This document shows, piece by piece, positions 29,390 to 35,699 of a stretch of 64,000 nt of DNA; the first letter of the stretch is position 1; each line of letters starts with the position of its first letter. This DNA is from Acidobacteriota bacterium. Its GTDB lineage: Bacteria; Acidobacteriota; Vicinamibacteria; Vicinamibacterales; CAVVIG01. A program made the translations under genes and the position numbers. The notes under the pieces were generated by a model, which made no database searches, was not told where the DNA came from, and saw only the letters and a list, made by a program, of their open reading frames with translations. The stretch is taken from the NCBI GenBank assembly GCA_040007095.1, contig JBDTVS010000181.1, forward strand, positions 1,643 to 65,642, given 5' to 3'.

Positions 29390-30613
29390 GTGATGTCGAT
29401 GACGATTACCCATCTTTGCCGCATCGTCGCAATCACGACCGTTCTCGGAGCCGTTGCTGTTGACGCCCACGGTCAGTTGCGGACTACGGTCTACGCCTCC
29501 GGGTTCAGGAATCCAGTCGGGTTCGTTCAGGATCCGACCGACCAGCGCGTACAGTTCGTCGTTCAACAGAACGGCCACATCCGGACGATCGAAAGTGGCA
29601 CCGTACGCCGCGCCGATTTTCTCGACCTCTCGTCCGTCGTGTCTTCAGGAGGCGAGCGCGGTCTGCTGGGCCTGGCCTTCCCGCCGGATGCCGCGACCAG
29701 CCGGCGATTCTTCGTGAATTTCACAGATGCGGCCGGGAACACCGTTGTCGCCCGTTTTCGGCGGTCGTCGGATCCGCTTGTCGCCGATCCCGTGTCGCGA
29801 TTCGATCTGCGATGGGGCGGGGCCGCCGGTCCGGCGTTCATCTTCCAGCCGTTCGCGAACCACAATGGCGGACATCTGGCCTTCGGTCCGGACGGGTATT
29901 TGTACATTGGGCTGGGCGACGGAGGTTCCGGCGGCGACCCTGGAGACTACGCGCAGAATCCGGCGGAGCTGCTGGGGAAGATGCTGAGGATCGACGTCAG
30001 CGTGCGCGATCGCGACCCTTTGGGTTACGCGGTGCCGCGCTCGAATCCGTTTCAGTCCGCCGCGCATCCCAGGTATCGGCCGGAGATCTGGGCCGTCGGC
30101 CTCCGGAACCCATGGCGGTACGCGTTTGACGAGATCACGCGTGGCGGCACGGGCGCACTCATCATCGCCGACGTTGGCCAGGATGCCTGGGAAGAGATCG
30201 ACTACGAACCAAGAGGGCGCGGTGGGCGCAACTACGGCTGGCGGAATCGGGAGGGCGCTCACGACTACAACCGCGCGCACCCGCCGGCGCTGGTGCCCGT
30301 CACTGAGCCGATCTACGAGTACAACCACTCGGTCGGCGAGTCGATCACCGGCGGCCTCGTCTATCGGGGTCGTGCGCTGCCCGCGACGAACCGCGGCCGC
30401 TATTTTTTCGCCGATTTCATCAGCGGTCGCGTGTGGTCGTTAGAGCTGACGACTGATCAGGACGGGGAAGGGCATGCGGCAGACGTCGTCGAGCACACGG
30501 CGGAGCTGAGCGACGGGACGCCGCTTGGGAACATCAGCAGTTTCGGCGTCGACGCGGCTGGTGATCTGTACATCCTGAGCTATTCGCGCGGCGCCATTCT
30601 GAAGGTGCAATAG
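29390..30613 (+). CDS. PQQ-dependent sugar dehydrogenase family protein, exported
   Basis: Motifs GERGLLGLAFPP, NHNGGHLAFGPDGYLYIGLGDGG, GLRNPWR, WEEID, NYGW, ISSFGVD. Exact start uncertain. Confidence 0.92.
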   Translation: MMSMTITHLCRIVAITTVLGAVAVDAHGQLRTTVYASGFRNPVGFVQDPTDQRVQFVVQQNGHIRTIESGTVRRADFLDLSSVVSSGGERGLLGLAFPPDAATSRRFFVNFTDAAGNTVVARFRRSSDPLVADPVSRFDLRWGGAAGPAFIFQPFANHNGGHLAFGPDGYLYIGLGDGGSGGDPGDYAQNPAELLGKMLRIDVSVRDRDPLGYAVPRSNPFQSAAHPRYRPEIWAVGLRNPWRYAFDEITRGGTGALIIADVGQDAWEEIDYEPRGRGGRNYGWRNREGAHDYNRAHPPALVPVTEPIYEYNHSVGESITGGLVYRGRALPATNRGRYFFADFISGRVWSLELTTDQDGEGHAADVVEHTAELSDGTPLGNISSFGVDAAGDLYILSYSRGAILKVQ

Positions 30614-30751
30614 CACGGGCTCGACGACACTGGCATCCGCTATCGGTCCAGACGGGAGACGACCCCCGCTCCGACCGGGCGAGCAGGGCTGCCGAGTACC
30701 GCTGGAGGAACGACGAGGCCATCGCCCCGTCGTGGTCTCCTCGGATGGCCG

Positions 30752-31015
30752 CTAGTCGGCGGGACCTGCCGATGAGTCGCTGACCGTCTCGGGCGAGGGC
30801 GCGCGCTTGGCTTTGCGCGTCAGGCGCACGCGCTGCGCGCGGGGTCCGCTGACCCGATCGTCAATCAGCTCGAAGCTCACGGCGCTGCCCACTTCCACGT
30901 CGTTGTATTTGGCGCCTTCCAGATCGCGACCGTGGAAGAAGACGTTCCGGCCATCGCTGGCTCGGATCACGCCACACGAGCGGCCGCGCGACAGTTCCGA
31001 GATGCGTCCCGTCAT
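30752..31015 (-). CDS. Divergent cold-shock domain protein
   Basis: MTGRI..., CGVIRASDGRNVFFH, VEVGSAVSFEL, GPRAQRV. The RNP1 aromatics are replaced. Confidence 0.8.
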   Translation of the reverse strand: MTGRISELSRGRSCGVIRASDGRNVFFHGRDLEGAKYNDVEVGSAVSFELIDDRVSGPRAQRVRLTRKAKRAPSPETVSDSSAGPAD

Positions 31016-31133
31016 TTCACGACCGCGCTTTGGTGCGATGTCTGAATTCCAAGATGTCATCATGTGGATGAATCCGTCTGATGCGCGCCGGTCAACGTTC
31101 CTCGCTGGCGGCCGTTCGACGCGCTGGCACAGG

Positions 31134-31325
31134 TTACTCGATCGGAACGACCGGTGCGTTCGGCGCCCGCACGACTTTCCTCGCCGCTACCTCCATTTGC
31201 GCCGTCATGATGACCTTGTGTGAGCCTTCGACCCTGGGGATGCATCCACGCATCAATTGAGCGGCGCGAAGTCCCGACAGTATGACGAACTCGAAGACGC
31301 TCAGCTCGGCTGGACGGTGAATCAT
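31134..31325 (-). CDS. RNA polymerase omega subunit-like small protein
   Basis: FEFVILSGLRAAQLMRGCIPRV...HKVIMTAQMEVAARKV follows the omega pattern. AAGGA RBS. Confidence 0.7.
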   Translation of the reverse strand: MIHRPAELSVFEFVILSGLRAAQLMRGCIPRVEGSHKVIMTAQMEVAARKVVRAPNAPVVPIE

Positions 31326-31356
31326 TCATCCTTCTTTCTAACGACAGGAGCAATGG

Positions 31357-31447
31357 GCGCGGCCTTTGGGCCGCGCTCGGCAAGGAGCTTTGGTGAGGGC
31401 TGAGGGCCGGAGTGGCCGCAGGGCTCACCAAAGCCATTTCTATTATA
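31357..31447 (-). promoter_or_regulatory. -10 box (TATAAT) and double-hairpin 5' leader of the omega-like gene
   Basis: attata at 31442-31447. Stems 31387-31397/31424-31434 (11 bp) and 31357-31364/31369-31376 (8 bp). Confidence 0.5.
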
Positions 31448-31668: not shown

Positions 31669-33933
31669 CTAGACCAGCTTCTGCCGCGATAGGGGCAGGT
31701 CGCGCACTCGCTTGCCGGTGGCCGCGAATATCGCATTCCCGAACGCCGCCAGGACCGGCGGCACGCCGGGTTCGCCGACCCCCGTAGGCAGGGCGTCGCT
31801 GTCCATCAGGTGCACGTTCACTTGGACCGGGGCGTCGTTCATGCGCGCGACCTGGAAGTCGTTGAAGTTGCTCTGACGAATGCGGCCGTTGACTGCGGTG
31901 ATCTCGCCCGTCCGCGCGAGGCCGACCGCCATCACCGCCGATCCCTCCATCTGCGATCGCACGCGATCGGGATTGACGATCATGCCGGCGTCGACGACCT
32001 GCTCGACCCGCGGTACCCGGACGACACCGCGGCTGTCGACCTGGACTTCGACGACCGAGGCGACATACGTATTGAAGCTGCGATGCGCGGCGATGCCGAG
32101 GCCCCAGCCGTTGCCGGGCGTCCGCTTGCCCCATCCAGACCGTTCACCAGCGACCTCCAGCACCCGCCGCAGTCTGCGTGTATCGATCGGGTACTTGTCG
32201 TAAGGCGCCCCGTAGTTCGAGTAGTCGACACCCTGTGCTTTGAGGTCCAGGATCTTCCCCGGCCCGATCATGTCGAGCAGGAACTCGAGCGAGTCACGGC
32301 CGGCCGCCCGTGCCATCTCGTCGGCGAAACTGTGGGCCGCAAACGCGTGAAAGTTGTTGCTGACGGCTCGGAACCAGCCGATTCGGACGTGGGCATCGGC
32401 GGGTCCGTTTTCGGCGCGAATGTTGGCGACGTCGAACGGCAGGTCCACGAGTCCGAGGTCGAGCTCGAAGCTCAGAGGCTCGCGTGCATTCGGCGCAAAC
32501 GTCGAGGCGATCGGTGGAAACGCCGAGCGCTGGAGCCAGGCCGTCGGGCGGCCGCGGCCGTCGACGGCCGCCTTCTGATAGATCGCGGCGGTGGTGTGGT
32601 AGTAGTCGAATCGGATGTCGTCTTCGCGCGTCCACACCACTTTGACGGGCTTACCGAGCTGCTTCGAGAGCACCGCCGCCTCGGCTGCGTAGTCCGGCTT
32701 CGACTTGCGGCCGAAGCCGCCGCCGAGCAACGTCACGTGGCAGGTGACATCTTTCTTGTCGACGCCCACCGCGGCCCCCACGGCTTCCTGGACAGCCTGG
32801 GGGTTCTGCGTCGGGCACCACACGGTCACCTTGCCGTCGCGGAACTCGGCGACGGCCGCCGGAGGTTCCATCGACGCGTGCGCCGCCAACGGCGTGGAGT
32901 AGGTGGCCTCGAGCACCTTGCCGCCTTTGGCGAATTCCGCGTCGACGTTGCCGAGGTTTCTGGCGACCTTTGCCGGTTTGCTCACCGTGTCGATCAGTTG
33001 TTTCTTGAACGCCTCCGACTCGAAGCTCGCATGCGCGCCGTCGATCCAATTGACTTTGAGCTGCCGACGGCCTTTGAGCGCGGCCCACGTGTTGTCGGCG
33101 ATCACGGCCACTCCACCGAGCGGTTGGAAAAGGTGTGGCGGCTTGAAGGCCGCGATGGTCACCGTCTGCCTGACGCCCTTGACGGCGAGCGCGGCCTTGT
33201 CGTCGTAGTCTCGAACGGTGCCGCCGAGCACGGGCGGGTGCTCGATCGACGCGTGCACCATTCCGTCCCGGAACACGTCGAGCCCGAACTGTGCCTTGCC
33301 CGTAATGATGTTCGATTGGTCGTAGGTGGCCGTCTGCTTCCCAACGAAGCGCCAGGCCGTCTTCGGCTTGAACTTCAACATCTCACCCTTGGGGACGCCC
33401 ATCTTGGCAGCCGCCGGCACGAGCGCACCGTAGCCGAGCTTGCGGCCGCTCGGCGTGTGCACCACTTCGTGGTTCTGTGCGGCGCACTCGGATTCCGGCA
33501 CGGTCCACTGCGCCGCCGCCGAGCTCACCAGCATCGAACGCGCCGTGGCGCCGGCATGGCGGAATGCTTCGTAGAAATCCCGGATCGATCGCGAACCGTC
33601 GGTATTCTGGTCCCCGTATCTCGGATCGCCGATCCCTTGTTCGATGGTGACGCGACTCCAGTCCGCCTCGAGCTCGTCGGCGGCGACCTGCGGCAGGCTC
33701 GTGCGAATGCCGGTGCCCATTTCAGATCGGTGCGTGACGATGAACACCGAGCCGTCGGGTGTGATGCCGAGGTAGACGCTCGGGTTGAGCGGCGATGATT
33801 CCGCCTGGGTACGGAAGGGCACGGTTTGCGCCCACACCGACCTCGGGAGCACCTGCGCGGCCAGGACGAACGCCCCGGTGGAGAAGACGCCGCTGAGGAA
33901 TTCGCGCCGGCTGACGTTTTCGATGGCGCTCAT
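31669..33933 (-). CDS. Molybdopterin-binding subunit, xanthine dehydrogenase family (isoquinoline 1-oxidoreductase beta-like)
   Basis: Tat-like SRREFL, motifs [36 protein letters not shown]. Confidence 0.93.
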
Positions 33934-34385
33934 GCCCGCTCCTTTGCCGCCGCCTTGACCGCGGCGCGGATGCGCTGGTAGGTGCCGCAGCGGCAGATGT
34001 TGCCGGCCATGGCGCGGTCGATGTCTTGATCGTTGGGGTTGGGCGTCTGTTTGAGCAGCGACACGGCCTGCATGATCTGGCCCGTCTGGCAATAGCCGCA
34101 CTGGGCCACGTTGAGCGTCGCCCAGGCACGCTGGACGGGATGGCTTCCATCCGTGCTCAATCCTTCGATCGTCACGACCCGCTTGTTTTGCAGCGTCCGC
34201 ACGGGTGTCTGGCACGACCTGACGGCCAGCCCTTCGACATGCACGGTGCACGCGCCGCAGAGTCCCGCGCCGCAGCCGAATCTGGTACCGGTCAGACGAA
34301 GATCGTCACGGAGGTACCAGAGCAGCGGCATGTCCTGGTCGCCGTCGAACGATCGGTCGGTTCCGTTGACTTTGAAATTAACCAT
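33930..34385 (-). CDS. (2Fe-2S)-binding subunit (IorA-like)
   Basis: Motifs [28 protein letters not shown]. Overlaps the beta subunit start. Confidence 0.94.
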
Positions 34386-34612: not shown

Positions 34613-34621
34613 TGCTATAGT
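34613..34621 (+). promoter_or_regulatory. Extended -10 promoter
   Basis: TG-C-TATAGT upstream of the small-ORF pair. Confidence 0.4.
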
Positions 34622-34787
34622 AATTGTGGTTTTCGAGGCTGAGCCCGCCTATAAGTGCGCACCGTGTCATCTACGGATCGTATGCGCCGACTGGCCCAAC
34701 TTTTCATCCGGTATCGAGCGCGGTTGACGCAACCACCAGCCGTTCGTGAATCTGGGCCGGCGCGGTCCCCGTTCGGCGTAACCCGAG

Positions 34788-34988
34788 GTGACGTTGATGC
34801 ATGATGAGTCCCCGCCGCTGGTCAAGCCGACGACGTGTCCGTTCTGCGCGTCGTCGCGTATCGCCGCGACGAGCGAAAAGATGGATGCGTCCACATATTG
34901 GCGCTGTGAGTCGTGCGGCGAGATGTGGAACCTTGGCAGGTTGAAGGGTTCGGCGCATCGGCAGAATTATCTTCCGCACTGGAAATGA
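34788..34988 (+). CDS. Small zinc-ribbon protein
   Basis: CPFC...YWRCESCGEMWN. GAGG precedes the start, which may be TTG 34794 or ATG 34797. Confidence 0.65.
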   Translation: MTLMHDESPPLVKPTTCPFCASSRIAATSEKMDASTYWRCESCGEMWNLGRLKGSAHRQNYLPHWK

Positions 34989-35022: not shown

Positions 35023-35184
35023 GTGATTACAGTATGGGTCGTGGTGGGGTTGGCCGTCGTCGGCGTCGTCATTGCCCTCGTGACGTCATGGCAGCGTCGG
35101 GATCCGGATGGCGACCTGGGAGCGGTGAGCAATCAGTGGATTTCAGAACACCGGCTGGATCAAGAGTATACCCACAGGCATTAG
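35023..35184 (+). CDS. 53-aa single-pass membrane protein (not in the ORF track)
   Basis: GGAGG RBS + GTG: MITVWVVVGLAVVGVVIALVTSWQRRDPDGDLGAVSNQWISEHRLDQEYTHRH. Confidence 0.6.
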   Translation: MITVWVVVGLAVVGVVIALVTSWQRRDPDGDLGAVSNQWISEHRLDQEYTHRH

Positions 35185-35384: not shown

Positions 35385-35699
35385 TTACCAGCGCGGCTCT
35401 GATCGGTAACGGTTCTGCCCGCCACCGCCGAAGCCGCCGCCGCCGGAGCTCGGCTTCGGCCGCGCCTCGTTGACGGTGAGGCTGCGCCCACCCATCTGGT
35501 ACTCGTTCAGGTCCGAGATGGCTTTCTGCGCATCTTCATCAGAGCCCATCTCGACAAAGGCGAACCCGCGCGCGCGGCCCGTCGCCATGTCGCGCATGAC
35601 CTTCACCGATTCAACCGTCCCCGCCTTGGCAAACAGATCCTGAAGCTCCGTTTCGCCAACCTCATACGGAAAGTTCCCGACGTACAATTTTCGACCCAT
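35385..35699 (-). CDS. RRM (RNP-1) RNA-binding protein with Gly-rich tail
   Basis: RNP2 LYVGNF, RNP1 RGFAFVEM, motif LTVNEARP. AGGAG RBS. Confidence 0.95.
   Translation of the reverse strand: MGRKLYVGNFPYEVGETELQDLFAKAGTVESVKVMRDMATGRARGFAFVEMGSDEDAQKAISDLNEYQMGGRSLTVNEARPKPSSGGGGFGGGGQNRYRSEPRW

Follow-up and report, generated by a model that had tools for sequence, protein, structure and literature searches.

We find that a soil acidobacterium of the Vicinamibacterales, with a single β′ gene, carries three omega-type genes, and that one of them, ω2, lies behind a conserved, structured leader element that also precedes other genes. This leader, common to ω2 and other genes and absent from Rfam, is the main addition of our analysis. 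We interpret ω2 as the omega isoform of a stress regulon that competes with the canonical omega and with a third protein, ω3, for the one β′ subunit, and we assign this interpretation a probability of about 0.55. The locus was identified in a 64,000-nucleotide stretch of DNA (the window), in which the following features are relevant.

31442–31447, minus strand: −10 box TATAAT, preceded by G, read from the sequence (putative promoter)
31387–31434, minus strand: conserved 5′ leader stem-loop, from the alignment of ω2 upstream regions and covariance model R1
31357–31376, minus strand: second, GC-rich leader hairpin (gcgcggcc-caaa-ggccgcgc), from RNA folding
31134–31325, minus strand: ω2, a 63-aa paralogue of RNA polymerase subunit omega, from the ORF and from profile and family comparison
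30752–31063, minus strand: CSD2, a 103-aa cold-shock-domain protein, from the ORF, Pfam and a predicted structure
30704–30740, minus strand: stable hairpin and probable transcript end, from RNA folding (putative terminator)
31669–34385, minus strand: 2Fe-2S subunit and molybdopterin oxidoreductase pair, upstream of ω2 on the same strand
34788–34988, plus strand: CxxC...CxxC zinc-ribbon protein, 66 aa, from the ORF; homologues lie behind the leader in relatives
35385–35699, minus strand: glycine-rich RRM RNA-binding protein, 104 aa, from the ORF and from RRM homologues in relatives

The ω2 locus and the omega genes of the order

The preliminary description had proposed a 63-aa omega-like ORF outside the usual rpoZ context. 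The ORF is present on the minus strand. On one side of it lies the oxidoreductase pair and on the other, beyond CSD2, a convergent gene for a PQQ-type dehydrogenase (end at 30613); this is not a housekeeping omega context. CSD2 follows ω2 on the same strand after a gap of 70 nt, and a search of the window for a terminator-like element between the two genes found none. Directly 3′ of the CSD2 stop codon, the hairpin at 30704–30740 has a folding energy of −31.6 kcal/mol (z = −2.57) and carries no U-tract. On the 5′ side, the AAGGA ribosome-binding site of ω2 comes after the second GC-rich hairpin, and the region 31310–31436 folds with −57 kcal/mol (z = −5.05 versus shuffled sequences). A scan of the locus for consensus promoters and terminators gave no match, and the ω2-CSD2 unit has no conserved −35 element. 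The best explanation of this layout is a two-gene unit that consists of a −10 box, a structured leader, ω2, CSD2 and a hairpin. Judged by eye, the upstream oxidoreductase pair is of the isoquinoline oxidoreductase or aldehyde oxidase type, and a 53-aa ORF with a hydrophobic N-terminal helix (35023–35184, plus strand) lies between the zinc-ribbon and RRM genes.

Profile searches bear out the proposed homology of ω2 to omega. The window ω2 covers positions 7–51 of the 53 in the PF01192 profile, with 20.7 bits versus a gathering score of 26 (E 4e-4); many members of its family carry a precomputed PF01192 match, and an NCBIfam search with ω2 gave no match. When a family profile built from 28 members was compared to the canonical Vicinamibacterales omegas with hhalign, the homology was clear (99.5% probability, E 3e-22), and a search of the PDB with the same profile retrieved the omega chains of solved polymerases (6j9e_E with E 8.5e-4, 7f0r_E and 6wmp_E). 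ω2 is 46% identical to the canonical omega of its own genome, is homologous to it over the whole conserved core and has a similar length, 63 aa versus the lineage's 61 aa. The alignment core common to both reads FEFV..(A/S)G.RA.QLM.G..PRV...HK...A..EV, and ω2 keeps all of the residues that are invariant across the three omega classes (F11, F13, V14, R20, A21, Q23, L24, G27, R31, H36, K37, A42, E45 and V46).

The ω2 family also has sequence traits of its own. The family search returned 246 related proteins, and the alignment of the 28 family members contains 17 invariant positions, including L19, A22 and C28. Position 22 belongs to the canonical RA-R-QL motif, where nearly all canonical omegas of the order have an arginine; in ω2 this basic residue is replaced by an alanine that is invariant in the family, a substitution that could weaken or change the contact with β′. 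With 246 proteins related to ω2, the 17 invariant positions in its family and 93 proteins related to CSD2, the two are real genes and not chance ORFs. The AlphaFold model of the ω2 monomer has low confidence (pLDDT 61.8), contains helices only at residues 10–25 and 41–47, and led to no meaningful match in a Foldseek search. Because omega is expected to fold on β′, we consider the poor monomer model to be uninformative rather than negative.

The source genome (8.56 Mb in 243 contigs) contains a separate canonical rpoZ, as the proposal of an accessory omega demands. It is a 61-aa ORF on another contig (C164) in the order yicC-gmk-rpoZ-coaBC, followed by udg and priA, and it scores 37.9 bits against PF01192, better than ω2. 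A third omega-like gene, ω3 (89 aa; contig C48:86149–86415, or L011:6150–6419), directly follows dnaK and hsp20 and precedes a 91-aa ORF. ω3 matches the canonical omega with 97.7% probability and occurs in 34 of the 41 genomes of the order; of 30 loci from these relatives, 29 show the arrangement dnaK-hsp20-ω3, and the remaining one has dnaK but no hsp20 match. The potential partner of all three is the product of a single rpoC gene, encoding β′.

Among the 41 Vicinamibacterales genomes sampled, 23 have a strong ω2 match (45–75% identity) together with a weaker omega match. All 26 of the weaker matches that were fetched from relatives adjoin coaBC, and 25 also adjoin gmk; from this location we identify them as the canonical gene. 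In three genomes (G007, G024 and G034), ω2 and the canonical rpoZ are found on one contig, which excludes a binning artefact. When 151 genomes were sampled across the phylum, the strong ω2 matches were confined to the order, with weak matches of the canonical level outside of it, and public ω2 loci are almost all labelled as Vicinamibacterales, Vicinamibacteria or Acidobacteriota metagenome-assembled genomes. A quick maximum-likelihood tree of 80 sequences has three groups (SH-aLRT of 99 for ω3 and 92 for ω2) and places ω2 and the canonical omega together on one side of a well-supported branch; the tree is built on few columns and its inner branching is unresolved. This topology fits a duplication of rpoZ within the order, and by sequence comparison the ω2 paralogy is real and old. 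In one relative (G007), the canonical rpoZ (contig C4:595301–595456, L154) contains an in-frame TAG, which may be a sequencing error or mark a pseudogene; the same genome keeps an RRM-ω2-CSD2 cluster.

The leader stem-loop and the genes behind it

When the sequences preceding ω2 were aligned, a −10 box became apparent, and behind it a conserved element with the consensus GCUUUYCUGAGC, a variable hairpin and then AGCCCUCACCAAAGC. The −10 box of the leader copies is TATACT or TATAAT preceded by G, that is, GTATA(C/A)T, and it lies mostly 9–11 nt upstream of the leader across 65 copies, with a distance of 7 nt in the window. Upstream of these 65 copies, neither a −35 element nor the signature of an alternative sigma factor is conserved. 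The leader would thus be located at the extreme 5′ end of its transcript.

All 43 distinct copies fold alike into a P1 stem (GCUUU/AAAGC), a 2x2 internal loop, a P2 stem (UGAG/CUCA) and a variable P3/P4 hairpin that insertions can lengthen; the whole element measures 44–68 nt. The covariance model R1 scores the window copy at 72.4 bits. In the R1 alignment, which was fitted to the model and therefore leans towards structure, 97.5% of the cells are paired, five pairs show compensatory changes and none of 500 shuffles reaches the observed score. The window copy differs in that its internal loop, usually CC/CC, is closed (GG/CC) to create a perfect helix of 11 bp. Rfam 15, including its cspA-type elements, has no gathering-score match in the window and nothing relevant around the locus at E ≤5, and the same search at 15 other leader-bearing loci found nothing relevant at E up to 1.

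Two other identities for the element were considered. We reject a terminator of the upstream oxidoreductase gene, as the element lies behind a −10 box that is itself conserved, lacks a U-tract and is found again before ω2 in unrelated contexts. A double-stranded DNA operator is unlikely, since the arms are parted by a hairpin of variable length and show compensatory changes. Judged on its alignment and predicted fold, the leader is a candidate for a cis-regulatory RNA of a new kind, and the genes behind it define its regulon.

A search of the 41 genomes with R1 found about 44 copies, 19 of them directly upstream of ω2. The others precede genes for zinc-ribbon proteins (often with a coiled-coil partner), NdvB/GH94-like proteins, Hsp20 and secreted proteins, so the leader is not specific to ω2. 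The source genome has exactly two copies, one before ω2 and one before a canonical csp gene. The latter copy is outside of the window (contig C145:10074–10119, plus strand), follows a TATACT box and lies about 110 nt upstream of the csp gene (MAETKGRIKRLVSAKGFGFI...). In six loci (L083, L123, L124, L127, L131 and L134), homologues of the zinc-ribbon protein, 62–73 aa long, lie directly behind the leader. In seven genomes (L128, L129, L132, L135, L136, L137 and L138), the gene behind it encodes a large protein that, judged by a motif, is putatively NdvB/GH94-like (N-terminus ...KPFRDELLSIERLEERALALAASFT...AAEWLLDNFHL). The leader-bearing genes are a mixed set of csp, Hsp20, glucan-synthase-like, and small membrane or zinc-ribbon protein genes.

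Several further observations concern individual copies. Upstream of the zinc-ribbon gene in the window, positions 34614–34650 contain a TATAGT box and then GTTTTCGAGGCTGAGCCCGCC, which is possibly a decayed leader copy. One contig (G013, C38) has two ω2 copies 18 kb apart (399374–399535 and 417582–417743), both preceded by the leader element, and a further leader copy on the opposite strand at 419664. At three loci (L027, L030 and L074), the leader and ω2 are separated by a gene for a protein of 53–71 aa that has a C-terminal transmembrane helix and carries the motif F(D/E)xRWxAW, and a related sequence is present in the zinc-ribbon operon of L123.

In many copies, the leader could act on ribosome binding. 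In 34 of 62 copies, at least 6 bp can form between the 3′ arm, (A)GCCCUC(AC), and a GAGGGC Shine-Dalgarno sequence located 6–15 nt downstream, compared to 16% of shuffles; for a complementarity of at least 8 bp, the proportions are 23% and 1%. Compensatory variants of this pairing occur in L087 (GAACCUCAC/GUGAGGUUC) and L131 (GACCUC/GAGGUC). From this complementarity, the leader's 5′ arm and the Shine-Dalgarno sequence compete for the same anti-Shine-Dalgarno arm, and the predicted energies of the two states are nearly equal. In-silico folding at different temperatures had no consistent direction, with the Shine-Dalgarno sequence more exposed at low temperature in some copies; because the direction differs between copies, temperature folding favours neither a cold nor a heat switch. 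The window leader has no Shine-Dalgarno pairing alternative and its stem is fully paired; it is therefore more likely to be a 5′ stabilizer or a protein-binding site.

Structured 5′-UTR elements are known from cold-shock genes, including the E. coli cspA thermosensor and its 'cold box', and the 5′ stem-loop of a Thermus thermophilus csp mRNA. The leader resembles them as a structured element, placed by inference at the 5′ end, that is common to csp and the other genes of its regulon, and by its predicted alternative pairings, which would expose or hide the ribosome-binding site. However, it has no sequence or Rfam relationship to these elements, it is much shorter than the cspA leader, and its regulon also contains omega, zinc-ribbon, Hsp20 and NdvB-like genes.

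CSD2 and the genes around ω2

The preliminary description had noted a cold-shock-domain ORF with an altered RNP1 motif behind ω2 on the same strand, and residue-by-residue alignment to Bacillus caldolyticus Csp confirms it. CSD2 scores 34.7 bits against Pfam CSD PF00313 (threshold 27), and its AlphaFold model is a five-stranded OB barrel with a core pLDDT of 84–92. Foldseek aligns this model to CspA, CspC and CspE with a TM score of 0.80–0.83, normalized to the target, and an rmsd of 2.0 Å. A match to the Retron Se72 effector family (NF038236) was rejected, as its 27.9 bits, versus a cut-off of 82, reflect a generic likeness of the CSD fold only.

The nucleic-acid-binding face of this barrel has been rebuilt. 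In CSD2, RNP1 reads R-S-C-G-V-I instead of the usual K-G-F-G-F-I, and compared to B. caldolyticus Csp, CSD2 has the substitutions W8E, F9L, Y15C, F17V and F30G; F27 and H29 of RNP2 (usually V-F-V-H-F) are kept. Four of seven aromatic RNA-binding residues are lost, and the RNP changes are conserved across the 93-member CSD2 family. While CspA/CspB-type proteins (PF00313) thus share with CSD2 the barrel fold and the residues F27 and H29, CSD2 has lost the aromatic positions W8, Y/F15, F17 and F30 (to E, C, V and G), and it differs further by 16 additional N-terminal residues and a basic C-terminal tail. Its homologues share the N-terminal extension MMTSW-S, which makes the first ATG the likely start, and a cysteine is nearly invariant in the family. 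None of the other five CSD genes in the genome is as divergent as CSD2. From these substitutions, the canonical RNA-stacking surface appears largely lost and the ligand is probably altered.

Genes for RNA-binding proteins recur around ω2. An RRM gene, a CSD gene or both lie within 5 kb of ω2 in 26 of 46 public loci, and a CSD gene lies within 1.5 kb in nine of 22 relatives, where about 0.2% is expected by chance (six CSD genes in 8.56 Mb). The recurrent arrangements are RRM-ω2-CSD2, RRM-ω2, a convergent CSD2-like gene just downstream of ω2, a CSD2-like gene upstream of it, and an upstream gene for a canonical 68-aa Csp; in some other loci the CSD2-like gene is divergent from ω2. Of the 46 public loci, 14 have an RRM homologue with 58–83% identity at a distance of 180–800 nt upstream of ω2, and a further homologue is encoded on the opposite strand. 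The RRM gene of the window is on the same strand about 4 kb upstream of ω2, with the oxidoreductase pair in between, and its adjacency to ω2 in relatives suggests that an insertion or rearrangement split the two.

The linkage between ω2 and CSD2 is looser. The operon in which CSD2 follows ω2 is known from seven distinct loci, including the window, in one sub-lineage only, and just a few lineages have a close CSD2 match (>100 bits) immediately behind ω2. CSD2-like genes are present in four genomes without ω2 (G009, G014, G015 and G016), ω2 is present in six without a CSD2-like gene (G002, G017, G022, G027, G029 and G034), and no strict co-occurrence of the two was found across the genomes of the order. 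The proximity of ω2 to CSD and RRM genes well exceeds chance, but their arrangement varies. Of the module that was proposed to join ω2 and a specialized CSD protein, the operon in the window stands and an obligate pairing is not supported, with seven loci and with each gene also occurring alone. CSD2 is a frequent partner of ω2, not an obligate one.

A proposed stress-regulon omega and its alternatives

We now relate these observations to the function of ω2. Homology, paralogy, conservation, gene clustering and the common leader are established; binding to β′, induction under stress and the switch mechanism we infer. ω2 is a true omega paralogue that, in agreement with the tree, arose from the canonical rpoZ within Vicinamibacterales (Acidobacteriota), and selection has kept it. 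In the proposed mechanism, ω2 would be made when the stress regulon is turned on and would occupy the omega site on β′, and the resulting core enzyme would have a changed assembly, stability or regulatory behaviour. The regulon would be marked by the 5′-terminal stem-loop after a GTATA(C/A)T −10 box. In many of its copies, alternative pairing of the 3′ arm with the Shine-Dalgarno sequence would create an on/off translational switch, and CSD2 would be a co-expressed protein of the cold-shock fold with a rebuilt binding surface. The stress component of this interpretation gains indirectly from the leader that ω2 has in common with a canonical csp gene and stress-type genes, and from its clustering with CSD and RRM genes; together, they suggest omega swapping under stress in these bacteria.

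The same clustering can be explained differently. ω2 could keep the omega fold and work away from RNA polymerase, recruited as a small protein that assists or regulates the RNA-binding proteins encoded nearby (CSD2, Csp and RRM) or another target, in a cluster of genes for small proteins that bind nucleic acids. The persistence of RRM and CSD genes near ω2 in many orientations would agree with such a role, as would the family-specific, invariant changes in the main helix relative to the canonical omega (L19, A22, R26 and C28), and the low-confidence monomer model, being uninformative, is compatible with it. However, ω2 retains the positions that are invariant across three omega classes, its length and architecture are the same as those of the canonical omega (61 aa), roughly half of the ω2 loci lack both a CSD and an RRM neighbour, and ω2 occurs in genomes without a CSD2-like gene. 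We consider a role away from the polymerase to be unlikely. In a stricter version of the partnership, ω2 and CSD2 would always act as a physical complex, with ω2 tethering CSD2 to the polymerase. Co-transcription in the window across a 70-nt gap with no terminator, the gaps of 9–15 nt in L015, L047 and one further contig, the conserved N-terminal extension of CSD2 and a nearly invariant cysteine in both proteins would all fit a pair. But the ω2-then-CSD2 operon is found in seven distinct loci only, at other loci the CSD2-like gene lies upstream of ω2 or has a convergent or divergent orientation, and either gene is found in genomes that lack the other, four with CSD2-like genes alone and six with ω2 alone, leaving an obligate pair quite improbable.

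A further account is that ω2 would be a redundant spare copy of rpoZ with no specialized role and an incidental neighbourhood. Omega is dispensable in several model bacteria, and duplicates of small genes are easily retained. Yet ω2 forms a distinct clade that is kept across the order and has invariant residues of its own, it lies behind a conserved leader that stress-type genes share, and its neighbourhood is non-random; we therefore give the spare-copy account little credence. The reading that we prefer, a stress-regulon omega isoform, may also be extended: the three omega-type subunits would compete for one β′ to create stress-specific core enzymes, with ω2 controlled by a leader that resembles a riboswitch, and ω2 would additionally dock CSD2 and the RRM protein near the polymerase. 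This extension is speculative and we hold it to be a long shot. If true, the ω2-docked CSD2 and RRM proteins would be the bacterial counterpart of the Rpb4/7 stalk of archaea and eukaryotes, which is anchored by Rpb6; Rpb7 itself combines an RNP-like domain with an OB domain.

The preliminary description knew of no account of such a module, and our literature search for omega paralogues likewise gave no paper; searches on Acidobacteria cold shock and on Vicinamibacterales transcriptomics also returned nothing relevant. In the literature searched, omega is treated as single-copy. ω2 shares with RpoZ (PF01192) the core motif FEFV...RA.QL..G..PRV...HK...A..EV, but it is an extra copy outside of gmk-rpoZ-coaBC, in a separate clade defined by L19, A22 and C28, and with a stress-type leader and RNA-binding-protein neighbours of its own. 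The closest comparisons come from systems in which omega is a regulatory handle or has diverged highly in sequence: GafA acts through omega in Rhodobacter (PMC9638019), and divergent omegas were found by modelling in Chlamydiae (PMC9973325). Only one omega gene is at work in each of these systems, whereas here there are three omega-type genes and one β′.

These findings have consequences at several levels. CSD2 would be a natural example of a cold-shock domain whose canonical RNA-stacking surface has been rebuilt, and the leader adds a new cis-regulatory RNA candidate from abundant, poorly studied soil bacteria. In the prevailing view, sigma factors and polymerase-binding factors do most of the re-targeting of bacterial transcription, and the core subunits are treated as fixed. 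In the Vicinamibacterales, ω2 is tied to a csp-type regulon through the common leader RNA and ω3 is located in a dnaK-hsp20 cluster; three omega-type genes across the lineage, together with a single β′, would make the exchange of a core subunit a testable layer of regulation.
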